Assembly (NCBI GenBank): GCA_963733395.1
Contig: CAVTCZ010000002.1
Location: 18,981 to 82,980 of the forward strand
Length of the DNA stretch: 64,000 nucleotides
Reading direction: 5' to 3'
Source: an uncultured Actinomycetota bacterium
GTDB taxonomy: Bacteria; Actinomycetota; Actinomycetes; S36-B12; UBA10799
Both the position numbers and the translations under genes were made by a program. Position 1 is the stretch's first letter. Each line of letters opens with the position of its first letter. Shown piece by piece: positions 10,729 through 30,010 of the stretch. The notes under the pieces were generated by a model. It was given only the letters and a program-made list of their open reading frames with translations, did no database searches and was not told the DNA's origin.

Positions 10729-10746
10729 GATCTCTCCTTATGGAAC

Positions 10747-10770
10747 AACGTTCTATATATGTAGAACGTT
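10747..10770. promoter_or_regulatory. Putative TetR operator in the divergent MFS/TetR promoter region
   Basis: Perfect inverted repeat AACGTTCTA-tatatg-TAGAACGTT lying between the MFS start (10728) and the TetR start (10782). Confidence 0.6.
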
Positions 10771-10781
10771 ATACTACAGAC

Positions 10782-12483: not shown

Positions 12484-13893
12484 GCGAGCGACTCGGGACT
12501 CGCCGTCCCCGGGTTTCCACTCGCAACGAGTTCTTGCGGGACTACCAGTTGCGGGTGCGCGCGCTGGACGTTGCCGTGATCCTCGGCGCGATCGTGGTCG
12601 GGCTCCTGCTGGGTTGGGGCTACGGCGGCGAGTTCTTCGCCGACGACCGACCGCGGCAACTGTTCACGGTCGCCCTGCTCGTCATCTGGCCGATCGCGCT
12701 CTGGCAGGCCCAGTCGACGAAGGCGACGATCATCGCCAACGGTCTCGGGCGAGTACCGCCGGGTGATCCTGGCGACCATGTGGACCGCGCTGCTGGTGAT
12801 GAGCCTGGCGTACCTGACGAACACCACCTACGGCCGCTGGTTCCTGTTCGGCGTGTTGCTGTCCGGTCTGCTGATGCTGCTGGTCGAGCGCAACCTGATG
12901 CGACGCTGGCTGCATCGGCGGATGGCCGAGAGGCCAGCCTTTGCACCGCGTGTTTCTCATCGCGCCGTCTGCACGACTCGCCAAGTTGCAGGACGACCTC
13001 GCGGGTTCGCAGGGTCGCTTCGTGACGGTGGGAGTCCTGGCACTGGAGCAGGACTGGGACCCCCGGGCCGCCGTCGATGCGGCCGTGGCGCAGCAACGCC
13101 GACACCATCCTCTTCGCCCCGGGCGGCGACATGGACCCGCAGCAGACCAGGCGGCTCGGCTGGGCGATGGAGGACACCGACCTGTCGCTGATGGTCAGTG
13201 CCTCGCTGGTCGAGGTGGCCGGCCCGCGGCTGTCCGTCGAGCCGGTGGAGTCGTTGTCGTTCGTGCGCGTGGACATGCCGAACTTCAGTGGCACGGCGGT
13301 TGTGCTGAAGGCCATCACCGACGTGGTGGGTTCGAGCATCCTGCTCATCCTTCTCGGACTGCCGATGCTGCTGATCGCGTTCTTGATCCGGCGCGGTTCC
13401 CCAGGGCCGGCGATCTTCAAGCAGGAGCGGGTCGGGCCTCGATGGTCGGACGTTCATGTGCTGGAAGTTCCGCACCATGTACGTGGATGCCGATGCCCGG
13501 CGGGCGGAGTTGCGTGCGGCTCACGGCGACGACGGGGCCACGTTCAAGATGGCCGACGACCCGCGCGTGACCCGGATCGGCCGGTTCCTGCGCCGGTTCT
13601 CGATGGACGAGTTGCCGCAGTTGGTCAACGTCTGGCGCGGGGACATGTCGTTGGTGGGCCCGCGGCCGCATCCATTGGACGACGTTGAACGGTATGACGA
13701 CCTGGCGGTGCGGCGGCTGCGGGCACGGCCGGGGATGACGGGGCTGTGGCAGGTGCGCGGGCGGTCCGACCTGTCGTGGGAGGAGTCGGTGCGACTGGAT
13801 CTGTACTACGTGGAGAACTGGTCGCTGTCGATGGACTTCGTGATCATGGCGAGCACGGTGAGTGCGGTTGTTGGTGGGCGGGGGGCGTATTGA
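12480..13893 (+). pseudogene. Polyprenyl-phosphate glycosyl-1-phosphate transferase (WbaP/CpsE-type priming enzyme), four +1 frameshifts (~12747, ~12940, ~13095, ~13435)
   Basis: The C-terminal catalytic block IFKQERVG|LDGRTFMCWKFRTMYVDAD..DDPRVTRIGRFLRRFSMDELPQLVNVWRGDMSLVGPRP..PGMTGLWQV is present. N-terminal TM segments lie in frames 0, 1, 2 and 0. The GTG start overlaps the upstream stop. Confidence 0.85.
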
Positions 13894-13931
13894 ATGCGGG
13901 TTCTGCCCGCTGGGTCCCGAGCGCCACGTGA

Positions 13932-14630
13932 ATGGGGGGTTTCGTGAACGTGTTTGAGCGAGCCCAGTCCCGACTTGCGAGGATGGCACTGAGAACTCTG
14001 CTGGCACCCCGTAGGCCTGCTACATATGTGCGCCTGGGAAGCGATTACGGCGGCTGGTGGGTCCCCCGCTGGGCGTTGCTGCCGGGGAATCTCGCGTACT
14101 GCGCAGGGGTGGGTGAGGACCTCACCTTCGATGCCGAACTGATCGCGCATGGAATGAATGTCGTGGCCTTCGATCCGACACCCCGTTCAGTGAGTTTCGT
14201 CAAGGACGCGGACTTGGGGCCTGCCTTCGATTTCGAACCCGTGGGTTGGTGGGACAGCACCGGCACCCAGCGTTTCTACGCTCCTGAAGACCCCACGCAC
14301 GTCTCACACTCTGCGGTCAACCTGCAGAAGACAACGGAGTACTTCGTGGGCCGGGTCGAGACGGTCGCTTCGATCGTGAAGCGACGGGGGGACGGAATTC
14401 CCGACGTTGCAAAAATGGACATCGAGGGTGCGGAATTCCACGTTCTGCGATCCATGGTCGCTGACCGGATTCTCCCCCCCGTGCTCTGCGTCGAGTTTGA
14501 CCAACCTGCACCGCTTCGGTCGGTTCGGCTCGCCATTCGCGCGCTGCAGGCACTCGGCTATCGGGTCGAATCCGTGGAGGGATGGAATGTGACGCTCGTG
14601 AAGGGCGGCGATTCTCAGAGCTCGTCGTAG
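13932..14630 (+). CDS. FkbM-family methyltransferase
   Basis: ..NVVAFDPTP.. and the hallmark ..VAKMDIEGAEFHVLRSM.. Intact 232-aa ORF; start choice uncertain. Confidence 0.75.
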   Translation: MGGFVNVFERAQSRLARMALRTLLAPRRPATYVRLGSDYGGWWVPRWALLPGNLAYCAGVGEDLTFDAELIAHGMNVVAFDPTPRSVSFVKDADLGPAFDFEPVGWWDSTGTQRFYAPEDPTHVSHSAVNLQKTTEYFVGRVETVASIVKRRGDGIPDVAKMDIEGAEFHVLRSMVADRILPPVLCVEFDQPAPLRSVRLAIRALQALGYRVESVEGWNVTLVKGGDSQSSS

Positions 14631-15730
14631 ATGGACAGCATCCGCTCAACCCATGTCTGCTCGCGATAGCGCGCCTGGTACGCGCCGTGCGCGAGATCGC
14701 GGCCGCGTTGCCCGGATTGCGCCACTCTTGTCATCGCCGCCTGCAACGAGTCTGCGTCTTCGTACGTCCACTCAGGGGAAACCTCCGCGACGAGGTCTGC
14801 TCCTGCGCTACCTGCTCGGGCCAGTACCGGCAGTCCGCAACTGAATGCCTCGAGGATGACGAGAGGGCAATTCTCCCGATTCATGCTGGGGAAGACGAGG
14901 CCCGTGTAGCTGCTGAGGTGCGAAGCCACCCACTCCCGCGATTGACTGCCGAGCAGTGTGACGTCGGGATGGCTGAAGGCCTCCAGCTCACCGCGCACGG
15001 GGCCGTCCCCGGCGATATCCAAACCAATGCCGTGCGGCCACTGGCGGAGTAGGTGAGCGAAACCCTTTGCTTCGTCGAGGCGTCCGAGCGCGATCCAGCG
15101 CTGATGCTGCGGCTGAGGCCTGCATTCTCCCAGCGATGGCACACCATGCGGAACAACACGGAGTCGCGCTGGGTCGAGTCCGTACCCTTCGAACGTGTCG
15201 GCGGAACGGCGGCTCAACGCGACGACTCTGTCAGCCCGAGCCAGGAGCGGAGTCTTCACACCGGCGAGGTTCTTCACCGCAAGGGGCAGGGTCGCCAGCG
15301 CCGAATCCCGGTAGCACCGGTACCGTAGCGCCGCCAGCGGGTTTCCATCCGGACACAGGGTGCAATCGTTCCCATCGCGCCATAACAGGGCATTGGCGCA
15401 AAAGTGGCGAAAGTTGTGCAGCGTGGCCACGAGAGGGCCGTCCCATCGGGTGACCCAGTGTTCTCCGAAGTTCGGGAACAGGTTGTGGACGTGCACCACA
15501 TCAGGGCCGAATGCTCGCAGTTCGTCCATGGGATTCGGACCCCGACCGGTTGCGACCGTGATTGCCGACACAATTGGACTGAAGGGTCCTGAATGGTCGT
15601 CTGTGCGTCGAGCCACGATGCGCACCCCATGCCCCGCGCGCTGCAACGCTTCGGCTTGTGCCAGAACGATCTCGTTCTCGCCGCTCGGGCGCTCAGATCG
15701 GTAGAAGGAGTGGACGAAGGCTATCCGCAT
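14615..15730 (-). CDS. Glycosyltransferase family 4
   Basis: Intact 371 aa. MRIAFVHSFYRSERPSGENEIV.., VHVHNLFPNF and a GT-B C-terminal half with ..FPSMNRENCPLVILEAFSCGLPVL.. Confidence 0.85.
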   Translation of the reverse strand: MRIAFVHSFYRSERPSGENEIVLAQAEALQRAGHGVRIVARRTDDHSGPFSPIVSAITVATGRGPNPMDELRAFGPDVVHVHNLFPNFGEHWVTRWDGPLVATLHNFRHFCANALLWRDGNDCTLCPDGNPLAALRYRCYRDSALATLPLAVKNLAGVKTPLLARADRVVALSRRSADTFEGYGLDPARLRVVPHGVPSLGECRPQPQHQRWIALGRLDEAKGFAHLLRQWPHGIGLDIAGDGPVRGELEAFSHPDVTLLGSQSREWVASHLSSYTGLVFPSMNRENCPLVILEAFSCGLPVLARAGSAGADLVAEVSPEWTYEDADSLQAAMTRVAQSGQRGRDLAHGAYQARYREQTWVERMLSIYDEL

Positions 15731-15755
15731 GTGCCTCAGCCGACCCTCGGACTGA

Positions 15756-16571
15756 TCATGTCAGTGCGTCCAGTCGTGCGACGTGCACCAAACGCCCGGC
15801 GGCCCAATGACCCGCGGGTTGCTCCTGAATGGCTGCGAAGGCTGAGCCGGTGCGAGTTGCCAGGTCGGCCGTGACGGTATTCCAGGCCCCGTTCTGCACG
15901 ACCACGATCGGGAAGTCGGCGCTGGCCAAGGCCGAGGTGACCTCACGCTCGGTCTCGACCGGGTCGGGCACGGAGTCCGAGAGCAGGAACCCGACCTTCC
16001 TGCCGTGGAGCACGCTTCCCAGCACCTCGCTGCCTTTGCCGCACTCGAACTGCAGGTGCGGGGTGTGCCGTCCTACCAGTCGTCCCGCAAAGGGATCGAC
16101 ATCGATGCTCAGCAGCTCACCCGGTGCATTCTCTCCACGGTTCCTCTGCAGAGCTCGGAGTATCACCAGTGACCCGAGGCCGTGCCGTACACCGATCTCC
16201 ACTGCCAGGGCCGGCCTGCGGGAGCGGAGGCAGGCGTAGGTGATGGCGTGGCGGCCCAGCGGTGGCCGACGCTTGGATTCCGGGTGCCATCGGCTGGCCG
16301 TCCGGATCGTGGCAGCGAGACCAGTGTCGCTGCGCAGTTCCTCCAGATACTCACGGATCGTGTCCGCAGACTCTCCCAGCACGGGGCTCAACTGGCCCGC
16401 CACCCGGTCAGGGCCGGCGAGTTCATAACTGAAAGTGTCCAACTCCGGATCCCACAGCACATAGCGGATGCGTTGGCGAGGAGTCGCTGATGTGCTGGAG
16501 ATGATCTGAGACTTGCGCCACCAGCGGAGGCGATTGAGCGGGCGAAGGCCTGCCTTGAGGGACGGTTTCAC
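15756..16571 (-). CDS. Class I SAM-dependent methyltransferase (putative sugar O-methyltransferase)
   Basis: Motif I-like ..PALAVEIGVRHGLGSLVIL.. followed by ..LLSIDVDP.. The start is uncertain: GTG at 16571 was chosen, but the ORF stays open to 16721, where it would overlap the divergent gene. Confidence 0.6.
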   Translation of the reverse strand: MKPSLKAGLRPLNRLRWWRKSQIISSTSATPRQRIRYVLWDPELDTFSYELAGPDRVAGQLSPVLGESADTIREYLEELRSDTGLAATIRTASRWHPESKRRPPLGRHAITYACLRSRRPALAVEIGVRHGLGSLVILRALQRNRGENAPGELLSIDVDPFAGRLVGRHTPHLQFECGKGSEVLGSVLHGRKVGFLLSDSVPDPVETEREVTSALASADFPIVVVQNGAWNTVTADLATRTGSAFAAIQEQPAGHWAAGRLVHVARLDALT

Positions 16572-16685
16572 GGCCCCCCAACGACGCTCGGGGGCCGGTC
16601 GATGCACACCACATAGAGTAGCAACGTGCGACCGAGCGTCCGGCCGTCTTGGGAACAGGCCAAGCGTGCTGTTCGCGGCGCAATC

Positions 16686-17552
16686 ATGGAGAGGGAGTGG
16701 GCGATCTGCCTGCTCGACCAATCCCTCGACGAGTTACTCGAGGGCCAGACCCTGGCCGGCAAGACCTTCAAGCCCACAGACCAGCGCACTTACTGGGCCG
16801 ACCCTTTCGTCGTCGCTGAGCGGTCTGACACCTGGATCTTCGTCGAGGAATTCAGGCGCAGAAGAGGGCTCGGTGACATTGTGGCCCTGAAGGTCACGAA
16901 CGGCGCTGTCACGTCGCATGGCACCGTTCTCACCGGGGACCATCACATCTCCTTCCCCCAAGTCCACCGTTTCCGCTCTGGCTGGATCGCCACGGTTGAG
17001 ACATGTGATCCCGACGTACGCGTTCACCAATTCGATGAACCTGGTCAGCGATGGCGGGCCACGGAATGGCGCTTGCCCGCCGACCTCATTGACCCCCAAC
17101 TGACGCGCATGAAGGACGGCCGGTGGCGCTTAACAGCGACATCGCGATTGCACTCGGGCTACGGGCCGGTGACGACATGGATCTCGGCGGGGCAGGAACC
17201 GGTGCACTGGACCGTGATCGACGTCCGCGACCACGGGCTGATGGCTCGCGGCGGCGGCACCAGCGACGCCGAGCGCGGGCTGCGGGCCGTCCAGGACTGC
17301 ACGGAGAACTACGGCCAGGCGCTGTCCCTGCGCAACTGGCCCTCAGGGACTGCGGTGCGCGATCTGCGGGGACCTGAAGTCATCACGCGGCCAGAGGCGG
17401 GCTGGCTCGGCCTCCATACCTGCTCTTGGACCACGACCGGCTCAACGGTGGTCGTGGACCTTTGGCGGCGTCGCTTCCAGCCACTGTCCCCGCTGGATCG
17501 GTTCAGGGAGTTCCGCCGGGATCCTTGTCGCAGGGTTGGCGGCGTGGAGTGA
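16686..17552 (+). CDS. Hypothetical protein conserved in polysaccharide loci (function unknown)
   Basis: Intact ORF with a coding-like composition: MEREWAICLL..YWADPFVV..WIFVEEF..ISFPQVHRF.. I recognise no catalytic motif with confidence. Confidence 0.55.
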   Translation: MEREWAICLLDQSLDELLEGQTLAGKTFKPTDQRTYWADPFVVAERSDTWIFVEEFRRRRGLGDIVALKVTNGAVTSHGTVLTGDHHISFPQVHRFRSGWIATVETCDPDVRVHQFDEPGQRWRATEWRLPADLIDPQLTRMKDGRWRLTATSRLHSGYGPVTTWISAGQEPVHWTVIDVRDHGLMARGGGTSDAERGLRAVQDCTENYGQALSLRNWPSGTAVRDLRGPEVITRPEAGWLGLHTCSWTTTGSTVVVDLWRRRFQPLSPLDRFREFRRDPCRRVGGVE

Positions 17553-17569
17553 GACCTCGTCGACTAGCT

Positions 17570-18667
17570 ATGGTGTGGCCCTACTTGGCGGCGTATAGAT
17601 TCGCGTTCTGCGATGCCGCTCACGCCCGACTCGCCGAGGAGCGCATCGAATTCGAGTTGTGGACCGGCAAGCCGTCGGCCGCGCAGACTCAGCGCCAGGA
17701 TCGGGTCGCGGCGTCGTGGCACCGGGTCTTGCCCGAACGCCGCCTACATGTCAGCGGCAAGGAACTGCTTTTCCGTCAGCTCCCCTCCTCTGTAGATCTT
17801 CTGGTGGTCGAGCAGGCCGTGAAGAACCTGGAGAGCTATCCGGCGTTGCTGCGACAGCACTTGAGTGGCCCCAGCGTTGCCATGTGGGGTCACGGTCGCA
17901 CGTTCTCCACACCACAAGGCAAGTCACTCGGCGTGCTCAAGCAGTTCGTGACGCGGCGCGCACAATGGGCATTCATTTATACCGACGAAGGTGCCGACTA
18001 CGTGGTCGAGCACGGGTTTCCGCGCGATCGGGTGACCGTCTTGCACAACACCATCGACACGGAGACGCTCACCGAGGACTTGGCCTCGGTGACCGAGGAT
18101 GAGGTGGCAGACTTCCACAAGACCCACGGCACGCCGCCGGGTCGCACCGCACTCTTCTTGGGGGCCCTGGACCCAGCCAAGGGGACAGATTTCCTCCTGC
18201 GGTGTGTCGAGACGACACCCGGACTGACCATCGCTTTCGGGGGGGCGGGCCCGGCCGAGCCGACACTGCGCCGGGCGCAGGAGGCAGGGGCTTCCATCCG
18301 GGTTGTCGGTCGCCTCGACGGCCATGAGAAGGCTGTGGCGCTTCGCGCCGCGACAGTGCTCGCTATTCCGCAAGCCATCGGGCTTGTCGCCGTGGACTCG
18401 ATGGCGGCAGGCTTGCCGATCGTCACCACAGATGTTCCGCTGCAAGGGCCGGAAGCCGGCTACTTGAAGGATGGGGTCAACAGCCTCTGGGTGCACCGTG
18501 ACGCGGATGCGGCCCATTACGGCGCATCGCTGATGCAACTGCTGGGTGACCCAGCGCTGCTAGGACGATTGCGACAGCGCTGTCTGGCGGATGCCGCCGG
18601 GTACAGCCTCCCCGAAATGGTGGACCGTTTCGTTGGTGGTGTGCTCACCTGGAGCGGCCGCGCGTAA
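17570..18667 (+). CDS. Glycosyltransferase family 4
   Basis: GT-B C-terminal signature ..LFLGALDPAKGTDFLL.., ..AIGLVAVDSMAAGLPIVTTD.. ATG at 17570, in frame with ORF 17426..18667. Confidence 0.8.
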   Translation: MVWPYLAAYRFAFCDAAHARLAEERIEFELWTGKPSAAQTQRQDRVAASWHRVLPERRLHVSGKELLFRQLPSSVDLLVVEQAVKNLESYPALLRQHLSGPSVAMWGHGRTFSTPQGKSLGVLKQFVTRRAQWAFIYTDEGADYVVEHGFPRDRVTVLHNTIDTETLTEDLASVTEDEVADFHKTHGTPPGRTALFLGALDPAKGTDFLLRCVETTPGLTIAFGGAGPAEPTLRRAQEAGASIRVVGRLDGHEKAVALRAATVLAIPQAIGLVAVDSMAAGLPIVTTDVPLQGPEAGYLKDGVNSLWVHRDADAAHYGASLMQLLGDPALLGRLRQRCLADAAGYSLPEMVDRFVGGVLTWSGRA

Positions 18668-18734
18668 CCTGGCTTGTGAGCGCCGACTGCGCGTTGCATC
18701 GTAGGCTCAGACTGCGTGGGTAAGGTAGGTCGTC

Positions 18735-19985
18735 GTGCGAGCACCCGACAACGTTGCGGGCATGGACCCGGTGCTGGGTCGTGCGGTTGACGTGGTCCTG
18801 GTGATCGCACTGCTGGACTCCCTCGCGTATATGCAGCGAGTCTGGCCGGTGGAGTACTCCCCGACCCGGTCGGTCTTCGTCTTCTACCTCCTCGCGTTGA
18901 GTGCGCTGCTCGGTCGCTTCTGGCGCAGAGTCAGTGCACCCGTACTGGCCTCGACGCTCTTGATCGGCGTACTGGTTGTCGTCGGCCACGTGACCTGGAC
19001 AGCGAACTACTCCTGGCAGACAGCCACGAACTACTGGCAGGACTGGCGCCTGATGGTCGGCTTCCTTGCGTTCGGCGCCGCCTACGGAACGGTGCGTTGG
19101 CGCAGTTGGCGGGTAACGCTACTGGTTGCCGGACTGAGTGTCGCCGCTGTCCAGGCCTTCGGCCTCGTGACCGGCAACCTGACGCAAGGGGGGGGCGACG
19201 CGTCCTTCTATTACTACCGGCAAATCAGCGCGTCCGCCGCGCTGCTGATGATCGTGGGCATGCTCATCCTGCTCCTGGATTCGCCTGTAGAGCCCAGGCT
19301 CTCTGCGATTCTGGGGTCGCTGCTAGGTGTGAGCATCGTCGTCTGCCAGCACCGGAGCGTCTGGCTCTCGCTGAGTGTGATCCTCGTTCTCAGCTCGATG
19401 CGACTGTTCAGAGAGCGATCTCCCGCGCTGGCCTGGGCGCCCATCGCAGCGACGTTGGCGCTCTGGGTGACCACTTTGCTGCTGGCTGCGGTCGCCCGCG
19501 TGCAACTGCTACCCGGTGCCGGAAGCGATTCGGGTGCCCGTCTTCCGGAGGCCGCTGCCTCGTCGGGTTCGGTCGAATGGCGCCTCGAGATGTGGAGAAC
19601 TCGGCTAGTGGTCGCGAGGTCCCTGGACGACGTCCTTTTCGGCGGCACCTTTGGTCCGACGATGGCGCTGGGTCCGGATGCGATGGTGATGAATCCAGCG
19701 AACAGCGCCCACAATCTGATCCTCGATCAGTGGATCATGCTGGGGTTGGTCGGTCTTGTGGCGGTGTCTGTGCTCGTTGTCACCGTGTTGGTAGGCAGTC
19801 GAGATCGTCTGTCATTGGTGCCGGTTATGACCTGGGGGATGCTGGCCTTCGGTGTGTTCTACAACTGGCCGCCCTGGTTCTGGCTCCTGATCGGTGTGGG
19901 CAGTGCCGCGGCGTATTCGAGGAGCAACGTACCAAACGGGGCAACCCTACGAACTCAGCACCGGGTCGGCCACGCGAACGTGTAG
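18735..19985 (+). CDS. O-antigen polymerase/ligase-family (Wzy-like) membrane protein
   Basis: About 10 predicted hydrophobic segments and the Wzy_C-like motif ..NSAHNLILDQWIMLGLVGLVAV.. Start uncertain (18735 GTG or 18762 ATG). Confidence 0.7.
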   Translation: MRAPDNVAGMDPVLGRAVDVVLVIALLDSLAYMQRVWPVEYSPTRSVFVFYLLALSALLGRFWRRVSAPVLASTLLIGVLVVVGHVTWTANYSWQTATNYWQDWRLMVGFLAFGAAYGTVRWRSWRVTLLVAGLSVAAVQAFGLVTGNLTQGGGDASFYYYRQISASAALLMIVGMLILLLDSPVEPRLSAILGSLLGVSIVVCQHRSVWLSLSVILVLSSMRLFRERSPALAWAPIAATLALWVTTLLLAAVARVQLLPGAGSDSGARLPEAAASSGSVEWRLEMWRTRLVVARSLDDVLFGGTFGPTMALGPDAMVMNPANSAHNLILDQWIMLGLVGLVAVSVLVVTVLVGSRDRLSLVPVMTWGMLAFGVFYNWPPWFWLLIGVGSAAAYSRSNVPNGATLRTQHRVGHANV

Positions 19986-20032
19986 GGCCAGGCCGCTCGG
20001 CGTAGGTTCGTGCATGCGGAGAGGAGAGCCAG

Positions 20033-21217
20033 GTGCACATCGCTGTTGTCGGCCCGGCCTCCCCTGTGCGGCTGGCTGGCGAGCTCGATGCATCGGACCG
20101 GCGGCACGCTGAGGGGTACCTCGACCTCGGCGGAACCGCTGTTGTCGAGCTTGTCCGCAGCCTGCTTGCGAAGGGCCACCGAATCACAGTGGTCACGGCG
20201 CATCACTCCCCGGGGTTCGGGCCGGCGCGATTCGTCGGACCCAATCTGGACATCGTCGTAGCCGCGGGGCGTACGCGCGCGCGTGACTGGCTGGGGGATC
20301 TGTATCACGTCGAGAGACGGCAGATGATGCAGACCATCAGGGACGCGAAGCCCGACATCGTTCACGCGCATTGGACCTACGAGTTTGAGTTGGCCGCGCA
20401 AGACAGCGACCTGTTGCACGTCACCACAGCCCGCGACTCGCCTTTCACCATTCTGCGAAGGACGAGGGACATGTACCGGGTGGCCCGCCTGGGGGTGGCT
20501 CTGCGGGCCCGGCCCGGAATCCAACAACTGTCTGTGGTGTCGCCGTATCTGGCGACGGCATGGCGACGGCAACTGCTCTACAGACGACCGATCCGGGTAA
20601 TGCCCAATTCGATTCCGCAGGACGTTCTGACTATGAGGCGTGATCCGGCACCGCACCCGGTCGTCACCTACATCGCCGACGCCGGTCCGCTCAAGAACGT
20701 CCGCACGCTTCTGCAGGCGTTCCGCCTGGTGCGTGCGTCAATTCCTTCCGCCGAACTCCACCTCATCGGAGCGGGACTGGGTCCTGGCGAGCATGCCGCC
20801 CTATGGGCTGAGACCGGCGGACTAGCCCAGAACGTGAGGTTCCTCGGTCCCTTGGCTCGCGAACAAGTGGCCTTCGAATTGAGCATCTCCTGGCTCTACA
20901 CCCACGCTTCGCTTGAGGAGTCGTTTGGTAATGCGGTTCTCGAGGCGGCATCCGCTGGTGTTCCGGTGCTGGGGGGCCGACGCAGCGGTGGCGTCCCGTA
21001 CGTCCTGGGGTACGGTGCTGCGGGGTGGTTGACCGATGTCAGGAATCCTGCTGCGCTGTCCGAGTCGATGGTTGCCCTCCTGGATCGGCCGCATTCACCG
21101 CCGCCGACTACGAGCGCCTATCTCGCGCGGTTCGCGCCAGAACATGTTGCCGCAGATTACGTGGCCTGGTACGAGTTCACGCTGGAACACCATGCGATCG
21201 GCCATCCCACACCTTGA
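20033..21217 (+). CDS. Glycosyltransferase family 4
   Basis: GTG start preceded by GGAGAGGAGA. MHIAVVGPASP.., VHAHWTYEF and ..ASLEESFGNAVLEAASAGVPVLGG.. Confidence 0.85.
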   Translation: MHIAVVGPASPVRLAGELDASDRRHAEGYLDLGGTAVVELVRSLLAKGHRITVVTAHHSPGFGPARFVGPNLDIVVAAGRTRARDWLGDLYHVERRQMMQTIRDAKPDIVHAHWTYEFELAAQDSDLLHVTTARDSPFTILRRTRDMYRVARLGVALRARPGIQQLSVVSPYLATAWRRQLLYRRPIRVMPNSIPQDVLTMRRDPAPHPVVTYIADAGPLKNVRTLLQAFRLVRASIPSAELHLIGAGLGPGEHAALWAETGGLAQNVRFLGPLAREQVAFELSISWLYTHASLEESFGNAVLEAASAGVPVLGGRRSGGVPYVLGYGAAGWLTDVRNPAALSESMVALLDRPHSPPPTTSAYLARFAPEHVAADYVAWYEFTLEHHAIGHPTP

Positions 21218-21228
21218 GTCGACGCTTG

Positions 21229-22689
21229 TCATCCCCGCGTCAGCCCCCGCGTCGACAGCAGACGCCAGAAGGTGGTCCTGCTCCTGAGGAGCCACAGCAG
21301 GGCAACCTCAGCAGCCGCTGCGGCCGCGAGGAGAGCCAGTTCTGCGAGGCTGCTCAGCGGCAGTAAGGAGATCGGGAGAAACACGAGGCCGCAGGCAACC
21401 GCCTGGAACAGGAGCACCAGGCGGACGCCGGACCACCACTGCCGGGGTGCGAGAAGGTCGGCTCTCGCTAAGGGGAACACGTACCACATCGACGAAAGCA
21501 CCCGTCCCGCCAGCAGGCCGACGGCAGCAGGCAGGGGGGTGTGTTGCTGGAAGGTCACGAGCGCACCGAGGAGAGTGCAGATCGTGGCGATGATCCACCC
21601 GATCACCGTGACTCGAAACCTCCCGAGCGCTTCGAAAGCCGTTCCCAGTGGGACCCCGATCATTGGCATCACACCCAGTAGTACGGCGATCCCCGCCAAC
21701 GAGACGGCTTCGCTCCAGCCGGGCCCGAGCAACAACTCCAGAAAGGGTGGTGCCGCAAAGTAGCCAATGCCCCCTGCGACGATCACCGGCCACGAAATCA
21801 GAATCATGATCTCTGTGAAGGCTGACTGGTTCCGCGACACGGGTCCGTCGGGCCGCAGTTCAGGAAACAGTGCGTAGTTGAAGGACGCCTGAAGGGCGGT
21901 CAGGGGTGCGGTGATCAGCGATGTTGCCCGGTTGTAGGCGCCTAGGGCATCCGTCCCCGCGAACCGGGAGATCGACCAGCCGGAGATGTTCTGGCTGCTC
22001 ATCCGCAGGAGGTTCATGCCAGAGGCGCGGACGGCGTAGTTGATGTCCTTGCGTGCATGGCGGGGGGAGAACAGGGGGAATCGTCGATCTGAGGGAACCC
22101 TCCGAGCAGTCACGAGTATGGTCGTTGCCCCGGCCACGAGGAAACCGATAGTCAGGCTCCAAGGAGCGCGCGCGCTTACTACGGCGGCCAGACCCACCCC
22201 GATGCCCACCAACTGGCCTGTCACATTCGCGGCGGCGACCCGCGTCGTCAGACCTTGTCTACGCAGCACCCCGTTGTACACCGACTGCACAGCGACCACG
22301 GGCAGTCCCAGGCACATCAGCCGCGTGAGTGTGGTCGAATCCGGAACCGCCCACAACTGTGCCCAGGCCGGAGCAACGAGGACCCCGAAGGCCATCGCGA
22401 CGATACCCAGGGAGGCGCCCGCCCCGAGCAGCGCGCGATCGACATCAGCAGTATCCTCATCGCGGCGGGCTGCGCTGAGTTCCAAGGAGGCTCCGGCCAG
22501 CACACTCAGCAGTCCGACGCCGGCAAGAGCCACGGCGTAGGCCCCGAATGCTGGCGGTTCCAGAATGCGGGAGGAGGCGGCGGCGTAGCCCAGCTGCACC
22601 AGCATGACCACGATGGAGCCAGCCGACATTGCGACGAAACCGCGAAAGACGCGTACCGCCCCTGGCTTGGTCACTGCCTGGTGTTCCAT
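21229..22689 (-). CDS. wzx: Polysaccharide flippase (Wzx, MOP superfamily)
   Basis: About 486 aa and highly hydrophobic, with 12-14 TM-like segments. Its position in the glycan locus fits a flippase. ATG at 22689. Confidence 0.75.
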   Translation of the reverse strand: MEHQAVTKPGAVRVFRGFVAMSAGSIVVMLVQLGYAAASSRILEPPAFGAYAVALAGVGLLSVLAGASLELSAARRDEDTADVDRALLGAGASLGIVAMAFGVLVAPAWAQLWAVPDSTTLTRLMCLGLPVVAVQSVYNGVLRRQGLTTRVAAANVTGQLVGIGVGLAAVVSARAPWSLTIGFLVAGATTILVTARRVPSDRRFPLFSPRHARKDINYAVRASGMNLLRMSSQNISGWSISRFAGTDALGAYNRATSLITAPLTALQASFNYALFPELRPDGPVSRNQSAFTEIMILISWPVIVAGGIGYFAAPPFLELLLGPGWSEAVSLAGIAVLLGVMPMIGVPLGTAFEALGRFRVTVIGWIIATICTLLGALVTFQQHTPLPAAVGLLAGRVLSSMWYVFPLARADLLAPRQWWSGVRLVLLFQAVACGLVFLPISLLPLSSLAELALLAAAAAAEVALLWLLRSRTTFWRLLSTRGLTRG

Positions 22690-23288
22690 GCCTGACCACG
22701 GACGAACCAGGTGCACTGCGTGTCTTCATGCACCGCCCAGGTCCCGCCCAGTTCGGCTCGCCAGGTACGTGCGATCGCTGCCTCGCCTGACCTGTGCGTG
22801 TCATCGAGCAGAACAGCACATCGCTCAGACATGCGGTCCTTGACCAAGTGGATCGCGGGATAACGGTCGTGTGCCCATTCCGACCTGTAAGCGGTCGGTC
22901 CATCCACGAGCACCAGATCGATGGCCTCCTCGAGATCCAGGTTGTTGTCCCGAAGCGCGTACCAACGGGACACCCGTAGGGGTGAGTCCTCCGTGTAGGA
23001 AGCGAGTGGACGATGGATGATCTCCGTGTGGGCGTAGGAGAATGGTTGTAGCCGCTCGCGCAGGTAGCCCGCCCACTCCGCGTCCTCCTCGACGGCGATG
23101 ATGTTTATCGCCGTTTTCGTGTGTTCCGCCCAAGCGGCCATGATCAGAGTTGAGAGTCCAGGCCCGAATTCCACGATGCTGCGCCGACGGTTGAGTTCCA
23201 GCTCGTTGCAGATTGTCAGTGCGACCGCAGGGGAGATGGAGGATCCCGTCCAGGGCAGGAAACGGTCGATGAGGGGACTCAACTTCAT
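22671..23288 (-). CDS. Class I SAM-dependent methyltransferase
   Basis: ..RRSIVEFGPGLSTLIMAAW.. (motif I) and ..LVLVDGP.. ATG at 23288; an upstream GTG near 23370 is also possible. Confidence 0.6.
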   Translation of the reverse strand: MKLSPLIDRFLPWTGSSISPAVALTICNELELNRRRSIVEFGPGLSTLIMAAWAEHTKTAINIIAVEEDAEWAGYLRERLQPFSYAHTEIIHRPLASYTEDSPLRVSRWYALRDNNLDLEEAIDLVLVDGPTAYRSEWAHDRYPAIHLVKDRMSERCAVLLDDTHRSGEAAIARTWRAELGGTWAVHEDTQCTWFVRGQAWNTRQ

Positions 23289-23379
23289 AAGGGCGACTGC
23301 ATCCCGACGCTGTCGTGGCGATCGTCGACGATCCACTCGTGCGCGTGCCCTCCATAGGTATTTGCTCACGACGTTCGGT

Positions 23380-24492
23380 CTACCACGCCCGTGTCCGATT
23401 CCGCAGGTGACACGGAGCGGGCGGAATCCCGTAGAGGGTGCAGTAACAGCGAATCCCCCGCTCGACTGCATAGCGCTCCCGAATCTGCTGCATCGTATCG
23501 GCGCTTGGCGGTGGCATCGCCGCAGCAGCCATGATGGATGCTGCAAGACCGCTGCCGTCCGAGGGTGTCCACATGATGTGTGCCTCGGACTCCTTCCAGT
23601 CCCAAAGCCCCGGCGCATCGGCAAAGACGCACCGCACACCGCAGGCCACAGCCTCCAGTGCCGCGATACTGGCTCCCTCCCGCTCCGAGGGCATCACGAA
23701 CACATCGGTCGCTTCGAGCACCGTGGCGGAGTCCTCGTTGGGCGGGAGGAATCGAGACCGACCGGCGACCCCGAGTTCCGTGCTGAGGGCCCGTTCAGGT
23801 TCGCCGGGCTGTTGTTGACCGAGGTGCAAATATACGACGTTGCTCGGCAACTCCCGTAGTGCCTCGACGACCAAGTTGTGCCGCTTCACCGGACCGCAGT
23901 TCCCAACCGTCGAAACGACGAGTGCATCGGATGGAATGGAGAAATGGTGCCGTGCCTTCGTTCGGCGATGCGTCGAGACCGGCTTGAAGCGCTGAGGGTC
24001 GTACCAGTTCGGGATCAGTCGGGCGGGGTTGTTGAAGCGTTTGAGCTCGTTGTCGGCCACCGAGACACTGACGGCTACTGTTGTGGCACCCATCATGCGC
24101 AGGAGTCGTCGCTGCCACAGACGCTCGACCCTGAGCGCACCCCCGAACTCGAACACGTTGTGGACTGTGCGGACGATACGTTTGATTCCTGCTGCACGCC
24201 CTGCTGCTGCGATCCAGAAGTTGGCGTGCTCTGTATGCACATGCAGAACGTCTGCATCCAACCCGTTGAGCAGCCGCCTGAGTCGGATGGGGAAGCTCCA
24301 CTCCGGCTGCGGGTCGATGTACCTGACGGAGTAGCCCGACTCGCGCAGTCTCTGTGAGTACGGCCCGGGGACTGCGCACTTCGAGATGATGACCGAGTCA
24401 ACGCCGAATTCCGGCCAGAGGGGACCGGCCACCGCGAGCATGGTTTCTGCGCCGGAGGGGTTGAGTTCCTCCAGTACGTGAGCGACTCGCAT
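23380..24492 (-). CDS. Glycosyltransferase family 4
   Basis: Intact 370 aa. MRVAHVLEELNPSGAETML.., VLHVHTEHANFW and ..VFVMPSEREGASIAALEAVACGVRCV.. Confidence 0.85.
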   Translation of the reverse strand: MRVAHVLEELNPSGAETMLAVAGPLWPEFGVDSVIISKCAVPGPYSQRLRESGYSVRYIDPQPEWSFPIRLRRLLNGLDADVLHVHTEHANFWIAAAGRAAGIKRIVRTVHNVFEFGGALRVERLWQRRLLRMMGATTVAVSVSVADNELKRFNNPARLIPNWYDPQRFKPVSTHRRTKARHHFSIPSDALVVSTVGNCGPVKRHNLVVEALRELPSNVVYLHLGQQQPGEPERALSTELGVAGRSRFLPPNEDSATVLEATDVFVMPSEREGASIAALEAVACGVRCVFADAPGLWDWKESEAHIMWTPSDGSGLAASIMAAAAMPPPSADTMQQIRERYAVERGIRCYCTLYGIPPAPCHLRNRTRAW

Positions 24493-24656
24493 AGGGCCCC
24501 TTTGCGTCTGCCCTGAAGGCGTAGTGATCGGTCAAGGTTCTCTGCGGCTTCCGCCGACGATGGCAATGACTCTCCCACATGCCAGGCCGCTGTGATGCCC
24601 TCCCGCAGGCACCTTGACTCGCGCACGGGGTGGGAATCCGCTGATACGCTCCTACC

Positions 24657-25671
24657 GTGTCGACCTCCGCACAGAATCTCCCGTTGGCAGTCATCGGTGG
24701 CGGCGGTGGCTTCATCGGTGGGCACCTGGCGGCCAGGCTCTTGAATGACGGATATGCGGTTCGCTGCGTCGACATCAAGCCACTCTCGGATTGGAGCCAG
24801 TTCCACCCGAACGCTGACAATCTTGTGGCCGACCTAAGCAGGTCTGAGACCTGCGATCATGCCGTTCAGGGTGCGCAGGTGGTGTTCAACCTTGCGGCCG
24901 ACATGGGAGGCATGGGCTTCATCGAGACCCACCGGGTGGAGTGCATGCGTTCGGTCTTGATAAACACGCATCTGCTCGAGGCTGCCAACAAGGCAGGGGT
25001 CGAGCGATTCTTCTTCAGCAGTTCGGCGTGCGTGTACAACACCGACCTGCAGAAGGACCCGAACGTCAGAGCCCTGCGCGAGTCCGATGCGTACCCGGCT
25101 CTGGCCGAGCGGGGCTACGGCTGGGAGAAGCTGTTCAGCGAGATGCTCTGTGAGGAGTATTGGGCCGAGCGTGGGCTGCGCACCTTCATAGCCCGCTTCC
25201 ATAACGTGTACGGCCCGCTGGGCACATGGGAAGGTGGTCGGGAGAAGGCGCCGGCGGCCATCTGCCGGAAGGTTGCCGAGGCCGCGATCAGTGGCTCGAC
25301 AGAGATCGATGTCTGGGGCGACGGTAGTCAGACTCGTTCCTACACCTACGTCGACGACTGTGTGGAGGGCGTCATGCGACTCGTTTCCTCAGACTGGTTG
25401 ACCGCGACCCCGATCAACATCGGTTCCAGCGAACTGGTGAGTGTCGAACGACCTGGTCAGCATCATCGAGGGGATCGCAGGAGTTGACCTTCGCCGGCGG
25501 TACCAACTCGATGCCCCCAAGGGTGTTGCAGGACGCAACTCGGACAACACGTTCATCCAGGATCAATTGGGTTGGCAACCACTCACGCCGCTCGCCCATG
25601 GGTTGAAGATCAATTACGACTGGATCCGGGATCAGATCCTGGCGCGAACGGCTGGCGTTGATTCCCGCTGA
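24657..25671 (+). CDS. GDP-mannose 3,5-epimerase homologue (NAD-dependent epimerase), one +1 frameshift near 25443
   Basis: Matches the plant GME sequence as I recall it: GGGGFIGGHL, FNLAADMGGMGFI, FFSSSACVY, YGWEKL, RFHNVYGPLGTWEGGREKAPAAICRK, WGDGSQTRSYTYVDDCVEGV and GVAGRNSDNTFIQDQLGW. Confidence 0.8.
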
Positions 25672-26512
25672 GCGGGGGACACAGTCGAAACGGCCTGTGA
25701 TTGCCGTTCTCGTCGCCTGTCACAACCGGCGCGACACAACGGTCAAGTCGCTGTCGGCCTTGCTCGCCCAGCAGGACCGAGTCCGCATGCGGGTGTTTTG
25801 TGTAGACGACGGCAGCACCGACGGCACCGCCGAGGCAGTCGCGCGATTCCCCGAGGCCACGGTCATCTCCGGCGACGGGTCCCTATTCTGGGCGCGCGCC
25901 ATGTCGATAGCGGAAGCGAAGGCGCTCCAGGATGATCCGGAGTATCTGCTGTGGCTCAATGACGACACGGCGGCGCTCCCAGGTGCCATCGACACTCTGC
26001 TGGATGTGTGCTTGCAGAGCCCGAACTCAATCGCGGTTGCCGCAACACGCGATCCCGTCACAGGTGCTCTGACCTACGCTGCCCGTCGACGCCTCTCCAG
26101 TTGGCATCCCCAAAGGTTCGAGCGGTTGCCCGTCAGCGACCGTATCCAGCAGGCCGACACGTTCAACGGGAACCTCGTACTCGTCCCGCGGGCCGTGAGC
26201 GAGATCGTGGGGCCCATCGACGGTGAGTTCCCACACTCCTACGCTGACGACGACTACGGGTTGCGGGCCACAAGACTGGGGATCGTAATCCTTCAAGCAC
26301 CTGGCTTCCTGGCCGAGTGCCCGCCGAATCCGGGCTCGATGCCCCGGGCCCGGGGCACACAGGCGTGGCGGGATCTTCAATCGCCGAAGGGGCTGCCGTG
26401 GCGTGCGCAGGCTCGGTTTCTGCGCCGGCACGGCCCATCCTGGTGGCCGGCAATCCTGGCTGGGCAGTACGCCCTGCGCCTAGTTGGACGCCCTCCGCAA
26501 CGGGGTCGATGA
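25658..26512 (+). CDS. Glycosyltransferase family 2
   Basis: ..VIAVLVACHNRRDTT.., ..VFCVDDGSTDGT.., ..LWLNDDT.. Start uncertain (TTG at 25658 or a downstream GTG). Confidence 0.8.
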   Translation: MIPAERGTQSKRPVIAVLVACHNRRDTTVKSLSALLAQQDRVRMRVFCVDDGSTDGTAEAVARFPEATVISGDGSLFWARAMSIAEAKALQDDPEYLLWLNDDTAALPGAIDTLLDVCLQSPNSIAVAATRDPVTGALTYAARRRLSSWHPQRFERLPVSDRIQQADTFNGNLVLVPRAVSEIVGPIDGEFPHSYADDDYGLRATRLGIVILQAPGFLAECPPNPGSMPRARGTQAWRDLQSPKGLPWRAQARFLRRHGPSWWPAILAGQYALRLVGRPPQRGR

Positions 26513-27896
26513 GTGGTCGAGCACAGGCTCGCGGCGCAGTGAGTACCTGAGTCTGGGGTTGCTCCTGGTTGTGGTCGCGGGCTCCTATCTCTTGCTCATG
26601 CCAGGCAACCGCTCGGAGACCGACGATGGGTTCGGCTATGCCCACGCCGCGCGATCCGCGCCGATCACTTTCGACCCTGACCATGCTCTTCTCGTTCCGG
26701 TCGGCAAGGCGCTCAGCGCCATTTGGGATCCGTACACGGCCCTTGTGGGGTTCAGCCTTGCGTGCGGTCTGGCCACACTTGGGATGTTCTATGTTCTCCT
26801 GCGGTCTCTGGCGTTCCAGCACTTCTACGCCATGTGGGCCGTGGGGCTCCTTGCCGCGAGCTACGGCTTCTGGCGGTACGCGGTGGAAGCGGAGACCTAC
26901 ACGGTGGGGACCTTGCTCGCTCTGCTCGTCTGCGTCGCAGCCGTGCGGGGGTGGGCGCTGCCGGTCCTGTATCTCTTCGTGGCGGGGGCGATGCTCGGTC
27001 ACATCCTCAACCTGGCTGTGCTCTCGTTGCCGTTCCGGCTCTGCTTCTCATCGAACAGGGCCGACGGCGCTGCATCATGTTCATGCTCGGCGCCGTCCCC
27101 ATTGTCGCAGCGTTCGTCATCACCGGATTGGGCTCAGGTCCGCCAGCGGATCCACCTGGATGGCTGGATGGCGTTCGGATCCCCGCGGGGTTCGGCCAAT
27201 CAGTGGTGTCGGCCAACGGCGTGCTGGGCCTGCCGGGGGTGATGGACCTCGTGACCGGCGCCTTCGGGAATCGGGACTTGACCGGCGAGCAGGCGATCGC
27301 CTCTTCGCTGAATCCTGCCTTGGGTTGGCTATGCCTGGTCTTGACGTTGGTGCTCATCGCCGCGCTCTTGACGGCTCTTGTTCTCGTTGTGCGGGGGCGC
27401 TCACCGGTCAACCGGGCGGGCGCGGTGCTCTTTGCCGGTTGGCTGGTCGGCTACCTGCCTGCCGCACTCCTTCAGGACCGTGGCAACCCCGAGTTGTGGG
27501 TGATCGCTCTCGTGCCCTTCTGGGGTCTCATCGGGTCGCTTGCCCACCGAGTGGGGCGCCAGCCACCTGCGGCCCTCATCGCGGTGCCGATCGCCCTGGC
27601 TATGCACAGCGCGGTGGTGGGTTTCGCGCCCATTCAGAGCCCCAGCAACGACGTCAACGTGATCGCTGGGCGTTGGGTGATCCAGAACGCCGGACCGGAT
27701 GACCTCGTACTCACCGATGACAACCAGGTGTTCACTCGCTACCTTCGATATCACTCGCAGGCGCAGGTGGTGAATGTGCGTGGGAACCCTGTGCAGCCAC
27801 CGCTGAAACACACGGGCCGGGTATTCCTCACGTCGTCCGCGCAGGAGAGCCTGCGGTGGGACGTCGTGGCCGTACCGGGGGCACCTGTCCTGGAGT

Positions 27897-29157
<1,261 letters not shown>

Positions 29158-29233
29158 GGGGGTCAGGCTAGTGGCTGGCCGCCGTCTCCGGGTCCATCAG
29201 GGGTGGCCCCCGACGGGTACGGTGGAGCGTGCC

Positions 29234-30002
29234 ATGTCGGGAGCGAGTGTGAGTACGTGTCGAGTGGGATCGATCCCCTTCACCGTCCTGCCGTTCGACG
29301 CCGCCGTCGACGAGGTGATCCGATGCTCATACGTCGGCCAGCCCACAGCCGTTCACTTCGCCAATGCCTACACGATCGCCCTGGCGGACTCCGACCCCGC
29401 AGTACTCGACCCTCTTCGAGGCCTCAGAGGCGCTCAATCTCACTGATGGCATGCCCGTGGCCTGGGTCGGACGGCGCGCCTACGGCCGGACCGCCCAGCA
29501 GTGGCCGCGGGTGTACGGGCCTGACGTCATGGAGGCATTGCTGGCTCGGGACACCGGGCTTCGCCACTACCTGCTGGGCGGGTCCCCCGGAACCCTGACC
29601 CGCTTGCAGCAGGTGATTGCGGAACGGTTCCCGGCGGCACAGGTCGTAGGGGCTGAGTCGCCGCCCTTCCGCACGCTCAGCTCGGAGGACCTACTCGAGC
29701 AAGACCAGCGGATCCGCGACTCCGCCGCGCAGATCGTCTGGGTCGGCCTCGGCACACCCAAGCAGGACTGGGAGGTTGCCCGGCTGGCGGCAAAGATGCC
29801 GGTGGTGGCGATGGCGGTGGGGGCCGCATTCGACTTCATCGCCGGCACCAAGCCGCAGGCCCCGGTGTGGATGCAGCGCACCGGCACTGAGTGGGCCTAC
29901 CGTCTGGCGCGTGAACCGAGGCGCCTGTCCAAGCGCTACCTCTGGGGCAATCCGCGATTCCTGCTGGCGGCAGCCCGTAATCCGGGCCTGCGGAAGGGTT
30001 GA
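29234..30002 (+). CDS. WecB/TagA/CpsF-family glycosyltransferase, one +1 frameshift near 29397
   Basis: ..VHFANAYTIALAD.. is followed in the next frame by ..LTDGMPVAWVGRR..YLLGGSPG..VWVGLGTPKQDWE..AVGAAFDFIAG. Confidence 0.8.
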
Positions 30003-30010
30003 GGCGCTAC

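Follow-up and report, generated by a model that had tools for sequence, protein, structure and literature searches.

A putative Wzx/Wzy-dependent envelope polysaccharide locus with a mosaic core in an uncultured Actinomycetota bacterium

Introduction

Can a glycan locus in which at least six genes are split by frameshifts still encode an envelope polysaccharide, and how did the GC-poor interior of such a locus arise? These questions are raised by a locus of ~20 kb (~11.5–31.4 kb) in a stretch of 64,000 nucleotides from an uncultured Actinomycetota bacterium (NCBI GenBank assembly GCA_963733395.1, contig CAVTCZ010000002.1, positions 18,981 to 82,980 of the forward strand). This whole stretch is referred to as the window, and coordinates are given in its own numbering. 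An earlier reading of the window, made from the sequence alone (the sequence-only reading), had described a Wzx/Wzy-type glycan locus with a possibly horizontally acquired core between native-looking edges, and had predicted a heavily decorated heteropolymer as its product. Pfam, NCBIfam and PDB sequence searches reproduce the gene families of a Wzx/Wzy-type locus over the full ~20 kb. The predicted polymer, however, presumes working genes, yet at least six of them are frameshifted in this sequence.

The answer that we favor, with a probability of roughly 70%, is that the locus at 11.5–31.4 kb serves the Wzx/Wzy-dependent formation of a branched, O-methylated envelope heteropolysaccharide, that its core is a mosaic, and that its frameshifts are artefactual. 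The enzyme families and the mosaic structure were observed, while the order of events in the pathway is inferred from general knowledge of Wzx/Wzy systems. Here, we describe the genes, composition, relatives and frameshifts of the locus, weigh the alternatives and compare the locus with known systems.

Gene Content of the Locus

Gene families were called by Pfam, NCBIfam and PDB sequence searches, and frameshifted genes were assessed as proteins stitched by hand from frame translations. The genes are given below (GT, glycosyltransferase; GC3, GC content at third codon positions; L numbers designate related loci).

10740..11360, plus strand: TetR-family regulator (Pfam TetR_N, TetR_C_33), placed with the locus by its position only
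11497..12483, plus strand: UDP-glucuronate decarboxylase (UDP-xylose synthase, UXS); frameshifts near 11757, 12290 and 12375
12513..13893, plus strand: large polyprenyl-phosphate hexose-1-phosphate transferase of the WbaP/WcaJ type (PGT, priming); frameshifts near 12740, 12934, 13096 and 13437
13932..14630, plus strand: FkbM methyltransferase (Pfam Methyltransf_21, TIGR01444; GC3 0.71), first gene of the low-GC block
14615..15730, minus strand: glycosyltransferase GT4a (Pfam Glyco_transf_4, Glyco_trans_1_4)
15756..16625, minus strand: first class I methyltransferase (Methyltransf_24; weak Pfam match, 29.3 bits, cut-off 26.3; L083 orthologue 49% identical)
16686..17552, plus strand: GINT1_N-like beta-propeller protein (Pfam GINT1_N, 27.3 bits)
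17426..18667, plus strand: glycosyltransferase GT4b (Pfam); start probably near 17570, where a GC-phase hidden Markov model (HMM) places a frame switch
18735..19985, plus strand: Wzy1, polymerase candidate with a Wzy_C domain (Pfam); a left recombination breakpoint lies inside the gene at ~19111
20033..21217, plus strand: glycosyltransferase GT4c (Pfam), within the strain-specific cassette
21229..22716, minus strand: Wzx flippase of the MOP superfamily (Pfam Polysacc_synt_3, 97 bits; Polysacc_synt, 66 bits)
22671..23288, minus strand: second class I methyltransferase (Methyltransf_24; weak Pfam match, 28.7 bits, cut-off 26.3; 46% identical to the L003 gene)
23380..24492, minus strand: glycosyltransferase GT4d (Pfam)
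24657..25671, plus strand: GDP-mannose 3,5-epimerase (GME); frameshift near 25446
25658..26512, plus strand: GT2 glycosyltransferase (Pfam Glycos_transf_2)
26505..27937, plus strand: GT-C-fold membrane glycosyltransferase, unclassified; frameshift near 27048
27897..29157, minus strand: TviB/WbpO-like nucleotide-sugar 6-dehydrogenase; when compared with an intact orthologue, it has seven +1 insertions (28352, 28465, 28601, 28747, 28866, 28875 and 29036)
29234..30002, plus strand: GT26 (WecG/TagA/CpsF) glycosyltransferase (Pfam Glyco_tran_WecG, TIGR00696; TagA structures, 74 bits); frameshift near 29400
29999..31345, plus strand: Wzy2, second Wzy_C-domain membrane protein (Pfam Wzy_C), 90% identical to its L082 and 49% to its L083 counterpart

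The sequence-only reading had counted seven glycosyltransferases (the PGT, four GT4, one GT2 and a WecB/TagA-type enzyme), three methyltransferases, one Wzx and two Wzy_C proteins, and Pfam and NCBIfam return these same families. As a list of intact open reading frames (ORFs) the inventory does not hold, since UXS, PGT, GME, the GT-C protein, the dehydrogenase and WecG are each split over at least two frames; frame errors are so numerous that gene inventories read by eye overstate what is intact. The Wzy_C domain is found in two multi-pass proteins with weak scores (33 and 40 bits, cut-off 31.7). This domain does not tell polymerases from ligases, and is common to WaaL ligases and PglL O-oligosaccharyltransferases. 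An Rfam scan of the locus gave no regulatory RNA.

The Wzy2 frame lacks a stop codon and continues into the following phosphoribosyltransferase-family gene, which indicates either a further indel artefact or a fusion.

Sugar-Donor and Priming Enzymes

The stitched UXS scores 413 bits against human UXS1 (2b69), while the next family reaches 146 bits. Likewise, the stitched GME scores 299 bits against GME structures (8sg0, 2c59; plant GME), with the next family at 102 bits. Both family assignments, which had been proposed from the sequence alone, are secure, and the corresponding decarboxylase and epimerase activities are predicted from them. The GME alignment keeps the segments SSSACVY, YGWEK and GGREKAPAA, which we take to be the sites of the catalytic Cys, the Tyr-x3-Lys and the Lys of Arabidopsis GME. 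The stitched PGT passes the NCBIfam model TIGR03025 (EPS_sugtrans; 376.6 bits, cut-off 295.6), and its Bac_transf domain is split over two frames in Pfam.

The third donor enzyme had been described as a uronic-acid-forming dehydrogenase. It is indeed a nucleotide-sugar 6-dehydrogenase and passes the subfamily model TIGR03026, but its type is TviB/WbpO-like. Its best NCBIfam model is TviB at 498.8 bits, below the equivalog cut-off of 592 (a score that is lowered by the stitching over seven frameshifts), against only 28–147 bits for the UDP-glucose dehydrogenase models. On these scores the enzyme is not a classical UDP-glucose dehydrogenase. The structures give the same order: dehydrogenases for N-acetyl-hexosaminuronic acids (UDP-ManNAcA, GalNAcA) are matched at 151–188 bits and UDP-glucose dehydrogenases at 64–101 bits. 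The enzyme thus probably makes an N-acetyl-hexosaminuronic acid. It may not feed UXS, in which case the UDP-glucuronate (UDP-GlcA) used by UXS would come from elsewhere.

The GT-C Membrane Protein and the Beta-Propeller Protein

Two proteins to which the sequence-only reading had given no function proved recognizable by fold. One had been described as an extra multi-pass membrane protein. It is a membrane protein, and a structural model indicates that it is an eighth glycosyltransferase, with a GT-C fold, of an unclassified family. Neither Pfam nor NCBIfam recognizes the protein, and a search of 5.8 billion proteins yields no more than six to eight homologues. The modeled protein is a 73%-identical orthologue (predicted local distance difference test score, pLDDT, 75; predicted template modeling score, pTM, 0.82), with an alignment of only six sequences behind it; Foldseek aligns this model with ALG12, STT3, ALG9, ArnT, AftD and Pmt4 with a probability of 1.0 and template modeling (TM) scores of about 0.5. 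The family carries an acidic motif, NRSETDDxxGYA, in the first external loop after the first helix, and in its NRSETDD part N32, R33, E35 and D38 are invariant (P0001 numbering). A profile search started from the family reaches a PF11028 protein (DUF2723/TMEM260-like).

The GT2 enzyme encoded just upstream was considered as the maker of a lipid-phosphate-sugar donor for the GT-C protein and was rejected on three grounds: it matches no GtrB, DPMS or ArnC structure; it is found at 44–57% identity in loci that have no GT-C gene; and in L083 the GT2 gene does not adjoin the GT-C gene.

The other protein had been listed as unknown. It has no described function, as that listing implied, but its fold is recognized as a beta-propeller of the GINT1_N type. 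The AlphaFold2 model (pLDDT 92.7) resembles the propellers of sialidases, GH43 and GH62, and is thus glycosidase-like. Among 1196 relatives found, the GINT1_N domain occurs fused to GT4 or GT2 enzymes, and in the window the propeller gene adjoins GT4b. Because it abuts GT4b and its relatives are fused to GT4 or GT2, the propeller is probably an accessory to a glycosyltransferase and the partner of the adjacent GT4b.

Base Composition and Mosaic Structure of the Core

A maximum-likelihood two-change-point search for a single deviant segment places the low-GC block at 13801–27800 (log-likelihood gain 47.6), in near-exact agreement with the 13900–27900 that had been delimited by eye. The GC content is 0.642 within the block and 0.686 outside, a shift of 4.4 points. 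In 1-kb bins it ranges from 0.62 to 0.66 over 14–28 kb and from 0.65 to 0.72 elsewhere in the window (Mann-Whitney test, inside versus outside the block, p=4e-8). The shift is clearer in GC3, where it amounts to 13 points: the 14 core genes at 13.9–27.9 kb have values of 0.71–0.82 (mean 0.758) and the 32 other genes or gene pieces 0.82–0.95 (mean 0.889; p=1e-7). Sliding GC and codon statistics, which the sequence-only reading had proposed as a check, therefore both show the shift, and its ten spot-counted 60-nt lines were recomputed at 0.53–0.65 in the core and 0.67–0.75 in the flanks. The compositional shift of the core is real but modest. The genes at the edges of the locus look native in this respect (UXS 0.92, PGT 0.88, dehydrogenase 0.93), and WecG and Wzy2 are intermediate at 0.82–0.84.

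How the core came to differ is indicated by the closest relative, ENA ERZ25039459 contig_35663 (L082/L088). This contig can be aligned with the window in three adjoining segments:

13887–19111: 98.4% nucleotide identity
19112–24640: no similarity; in its place the contig has an unlike cassette of 7 kb, with LicD and a further FkbM gene
24641–30549: 84.7% identity, varying from 74% to 92% along its length

The gene for Wzy1 contains one of the breakpoints, at ~19111. Three adjoining segments of such unlike divergence require recombination. Among 185,579 species genomes, no relative of the genes in the 19.1–24.6 kb cassette exceeds 53% identity; for GT4c the best matches are actinobacterial metagenome-assembled genomes (MAGs) and a Propionicimonas MAG at 45–53%. 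In JGI metagenomes, Wzy1 has a single 38%-identical fragment and no close relative. Look-ups for exact matches to the Wzx and DUF2804 proteins gave no hit.

Marks of a mobile element were looked for as well. The region of 10.7–33 kb contains no tRNA gene (the only one lies at 556–627) and no Pfam domain of an integrase, a transposase or an insertion sequence (IS), and no repeats above chance flank the low-GC block. A mobile genomic island, which had been one possible origin of the core, was rejected for want of a tRNA target, an integrase, an IS element and flanking repeats. Since such marks are absent, cassette exchange is preferred over island integration, and the interior at 13.8–27.8 kb appears to be the serotype-variable part of the locus, exchanged between strains by homologous recombination. 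A swapped central block of lower GC is normal for surface-glycan clusters.

The composition of the relatives places the GC dip in a wider frame. The locus on contig_35663 is itself GC-poor (0.59–0.66), and in other lineages, too, the related loci have a somewhat lower GC than their surroundings. Because the parts common to the window and the contig (98% and 85% identity) are accompanied by an equally low GC in the contig, low GC is a trait of the whole locus family and not the mark of one recent insertion. The idea of a horizontally acquired core between native edges thus survives in the lower GC and GC3, the native-looking edges and the exchange by recombination, but not as a single recent insertion.

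It could also be argued that the GC dip is not horizontal at all and reflects relaxed codon selection together with the amino acid composition of membrane-protein and glycosyltransferase genes that are weakly expressed and were always resident. The modest size of the dip (4.4 points), its presence in related loci of other lineages and the failure to find mobile-element marks would all fit such a history. Vertical descent, on the other hand, cannot yield 98.4% identity, no similarity and 85% identity in succession against one and the same relative, nor is it easily reconciled with a cassette whose genes have no relative above 53% identity. Moreover, two genes at the conserved edge, one for a membrane protein (Wzy2) and one for a soluble enzyme (GT26), have a higher GC3 than the core genes. 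We consider a purely resident origin very unlikely and retain recombinational exchange as the explanation of the mosaic.

Beneath this variation, a module of GT4d, GME, (GT2), GT-C, GT26, Wzy2 and the dehydrogenase is conserved in four independent lineages, which were reached through the GT-C protein. In the contigs L083, L086 and L087, which come from short-read assemblies, every gene of the module is intact. GME lies directly upstream of the GT-C gene in these three, while GT2 stands between them in the window and in L082. L083, which is the most complete of the relatives, has counterparts of GT4a, the first methyltransferase, the propeller protein, GT4b and Wzy1 as well (46–52% identity). 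A looser scaffold, made up of PGT, UXS, GT26, several GT4, GT2 and Wzx, is also found at 35–60% identity in Streptomyces, Microbacteriaceae and other phyla.

In Streptomyces, six loci (L019, L034, L057, L067, L069 and L071) have a conserved arrangement of PGT, UXS, GT26, three or four GT4, GT2 and Wzx at 35–58% identity, and L071 also has a GME that is 56% identical to that of the window.

Proposed Pathway and Product

In the proposed pathway, UXS would supply UDP-xylose, GME GDP-L-galactose and/or GDP-L-gulose, and the TviB-like dehydrogenase a UDP-(N-acetyl)hexuronic acid. The WbaP/WcaJ-type PGT would load a hexose-1-phosphate onto polyprenyl phosphate, after which GT26, the four GT4 and the GT2 enzyme could lengthen the repeat unit at the cytoplasmic face of the membrane, one GT4 probably with the help of the beta-propeller protein. 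Up to three methyltransferases may O-methylate the sugars. Wzx would then flip the repeat unit over the membrane and a Wzy_C protein polymerize it, while the GT-C enzyme, drawing on a polyprenyl-phosphate donor, is predicted to add a further sugar outside the membrane. The other Wzy_C protein could be a second polymerase or a ligase-like transferase.

An LCP ligase, a GH76-like protein and an AT3 acyltransferase had been suggested to attach, trim or acylate the polymer. These genes are real:

40723–42084: LCP gene
42902–43819: GH76-like gene (weak match, 27.6 bits, cut-off 25.9)
~58318–59400, minus strand: AT3 acyltransferase, split over two frames near 58780

They lie 9–27 kb away among unrelated genes, however, and no link with the locus was found. 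The AT3 gene is shorter than its 587-aa ORF implies; the N-terminal part of this ORF overlaps a plus-strand gene.

The presence of two Wzy_C proteins raises a different possibility for the end of the pathway, namely that a glycan is transferred en bloc to proteins or lipids, with Wzy2 in the role of a ligase like PglL or WaaL, while the GT-C enzyme, a relative of TMEM260, would glycosylate proteins. The Wzy_C domain is common to WaaL ligases and PglL O-oligosaccharyltransferases, the GT-C family reaches a DUF2723/TMEM260-like protein, and neither an LCP gene nor a chain-length regulator lies within the locus. The Wzy_C assignments on which this builds are weak (33–40 bits), no target protein or lipid is indicated, and an LCP gene is present 9 kb away. 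En bloc transfer is in our view a long shot, and an envelope heteropolysaccharide remains the preferred product.

If the genes are functional, the product would be an envelope polysaccharide with rare building blocks, i.e., an L-hexose, xylose, an acidic amino sugar and O-methyl groups, in carriers that are uncultured soil or environmental actinobacteria. More speculatively, and with rather less than even odds, the conserved module together with the block of propeller, GT4 and methyltransferase genes seen in the window and L083 may define an undescribed actinobacterial envelope-glycan pathway. Its methylated polymer would contain xylose, L-galactose or L-gulose, and hexosaminuronic acid, and would receive a sugar outside the membrane from a new family of GT-C enzymes with no more than distant ties to TMEM260/DUF2723.

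Frameshifts and the Integrity of the Locus

Whether the pathway can operate depends on the nature of the frameshifts, which were located by the GC-phase HMM, tblastn with intact homologues, frame translations and DNA alignment. At least 18 single-base frameshifts are present, distributed as follows:

UXS: 3
PGT: 4
Dehydrogenase: 7
GME: 1
GT-C: 1
WecG: 1
Phosphoribosyltransferase: 1

None was found in 11.5 kb of core genes (13.9–25.4 kb). The flanks are affected too: split genes there encode an acyl-CoA dehydrogenase (~1880), a major facilitator superfamily (MFS) transporter (~10086), an endonuclease/exonuclease/phosphatase (EEP)-family protein (38757, 39086), CysD (~50621) and AT3 (~58780), and the LCP gene is probably split as well.

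Several features suggest that the broken genes have not decayed. The frame-corrected proteins keep all family motifs and contain zero stop codons, and the GC3 of the broken genes is undecayed at 0.88–0.93. Orthologues are intact in four other assemblies; that of the dehydrogenase on contig_35663 is an intact ORF of 428 aa with 93% DNA identity. Other loci from long-read MAGs (L002 and L082, the latter being contig_35663) have frameshifts of their own at different places. Contig_35663 even reverses the pattern, its strain-specific middle being full of tiny ORFs and its conserved right end intact, which suggests that both assemblies suffer from strain mixtures. Its position 1 corresponds to window position 13887, just after the PGT stop codon, where the frameshift-rich conserved flank ends, and this fits a repeat boundary in the assembly graph. 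Because motifs are kept, GC3 is undecayed, flanking genes are broken too, other long-read loci have different frameshifts and the lesions are clustered, it is highly likely that the frameshifts are assembly artefacts, i.e., consensus errors of a long-read metagenome, and not biological inactivation. Collapsed reads from co-occurring strains or paralogous loci are our best guess for the clustering.

Several points nevertheless weigh against a working Wzx/Wzy pathway with artefactual frameshifts. Among the Pfam-scanned ORFs of the window there is no chain-length regulator, be it of the polysaccharide co-polymerase (PCP)/Wzz type or a CpsC/D-type kinase; such a regulator is not universal in Gram-positive Wzx/Wzy systems. 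The same scan gave no UDP-glucose dehydrogenase, no GDP-mannose supply gene and no tyrosine kinase. No synthase for the polyprenyl-phosphate-sugar donor of the GT-C enzyme was identified, and the sequence of the GT2 matches none of the solved structures, so that it is not close to GtrB, DPMS or ArnC. A lower GC3 alone could stem from weak codon selection instead of a foreign origin, and the sugar composition, the order of the glycosyltransferases and the methylation targets are predictions. UXS, PGT and the dehydrogenase together span 3.7 kb and hold 14 of the frameshifts, compared to a density of roughly 0.2 per kb elsewhere in the window. In length, the dehydrogenase differs from its contig_35663 orthologue at seven places; each is a single extra base (+1 insertion) in the window, and none lies in a homopolymer. 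Why the lesions cluster in the most conserved genes is not fully explained, and this leaves room for real inactivation. Homopolymer slippage was rejected as a cause, as the dehydrogenase insertions sit in non-homopolymer contexts.

Real inactivation would make the locus a decaying relic, in which PGT, UXS, the dehydrogenase, the epimerase, GT26 and the GT-C enzyme are pseudogenes and no polymer is formed. The sheer number of disruptions (at least 18), their concentration in genes for initiation and precursor supply and the fact that they are not homopolymer-length errors are what one would expect of such a relic. Yet neutral decay should strike all genes, whereas the observed split, with 14 lesions within 3.7 kb but none over 11.5 kb, has an estimated chance of ~1e-8, and natural indels favor repeats, whereas all seven dehydrogenase lesions are +1 insertions. 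The complete motifs without nonsense codons, the undecayed GC3, the breakage of unrelated flanking genes and the intact orthologues in four other assemblies argue in the same direction. A relic is thus improbable, and assembly artefacts remain the preferred explanation of the frameshifts.

Other Genes in the Window

Two genes follow directly on the locus and are probably outside it:

31346–32015, plus strand: phosphoribosyltransferase-family gene, frameshift near 31733
32137–33108, minus strand: DUF2804 gene

Further along, a gene for a PIN-domain toxin is found at 33445–33843. The segments 43683–45313 and 59538–60407 encode a DUF2786/DUF7168 protein, an SprT-like protein and an AbiEi/DUF559-like protein, which are typical of mobile or defense DNA; the AbiEi/DUF559-like gene lies opposite the AT3 acyltransferase gene. 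A sulfate-activation operon at 50182–53094 consists of CysD (frameshifted at ~50621) and a fused CysN/adenosine 5'-phosphosulfate (APS)-kinase (51250–53094), which together make 3'-phosphoadenosine 5'-phosphosulfate (PAPS). PAPS could serve envelope sulfation; no sulfotransferase was seen.

Sensory genes are present on both sides of the locus. In the region 5985–8206, the gene for an H-NOX (heme-NO-binding) protein (7670–8206, minus strand) lies directly upstream of that for a 578-aa protein with a C-terminal receiver domain. The two look like a nitric-oxide-sensing pair beside histidine kinase and Hpt genes (2646–5124). At 53212–55272, an ORF for a MASE4 membrane sensor is followed by that for a GGDEF-EAL protein for cyclic di-GMP (c-di-GMP) turnover. 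Regulators of the GGDEF-EAL type often control exopolysaccharide, but no link to the locus in the window is shown.

Comparison with Known Systems

The locus appears to have the defining features of a Wzx/Wzy system except for the chain-length regulator, with a weak Wzy match. Like the O-antigen, capsule and exopolysaccharide (EPS) loci of this kind (e.g., enterobacterial O-antigen, colanic acid, streptococcal cps and Bifidobacterium eps), it has a PGT, several GT4 and GT2 enzymes, Wzx, Wzy candidates and nucleotide-sugar genes, as well as a lower-GC, serotype-specific center that is exchanged by recombination in conserved flanks. It differs from them in its actinobacterial host, in the absence of Wzz/PCP and a tyrosine kinase from the window, and in the presence of two Wzy_C proteins, a GT-C enzyme and GME and UXS together. 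Literature searches gave no actinobacterial cluster that combines this gene set with a known glycan structure; MIBiG and the Streptomyces ebosin (ste) cluster lie outside this comparison.

Among actinobacterial loci, the imp cluster of Actinoplanes missouriensis, with seven genes for the sporangium-matrix polysaccharide, includes a GT-C-like (Alg6/Alg8-type) protein that was proposed to act outside the membrane (PMC12691653). Like the locus in the window, it is of the Wzx type; besides this GT-C-like membrane protein it has a flippase-like protein, three GT4 and one GT2, but it lacks GT26, UXS, GME, a dehydrogenase and methyltransferases (PMC12691653). The comparison is one of gene content. 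Single components point to more distant systems. For the C-terminal catalytic half of the PGT and for GT26, the best named NCBIfam models are EpsZ and EpsA of Myxococcus xanthus EPS, with scores far below the equivalog cut-offs (218 versus 800 and 125 versus 500); the phylum is different and the rest of the locus is unrelated.

Bacterial GMEs are known from Methylacidiphilum (MfGM35E) and from the bleomycin pathway (BlmG), and were proposed to serve lipopolysaccharide (LPS) or antibiotic sugars (PMC6678494). Compared to the characterized enzymes (Arabidopsis GME, MfGM35E and BlmG), the enzyme of the window matches plant GME at 299 bits; unlike them, its gene sits in a conserved envelope-glycan module, and its epimerase activity is predicted from sequence. 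With the Vi-antigen enzyme TviB and Pseudomonas WbpO the locus shares a dehydrogenase for which TviB is the best model and N-acetyl-hexosaminuronic acid dehydrogenases are the nearest structures. In contrast to the TviB system, the score is below the cut-off of 592 and a TviC-type 4-epimerase is lacking.

The GT-C family and the propeller partner are two components without a described function. As an example of a glycan locus that recombines and varies with serotype, it is of an ordinary kind, and the quality of its sequence is poor; its modest value lies in the conserved, uncharacterized module that it carries.

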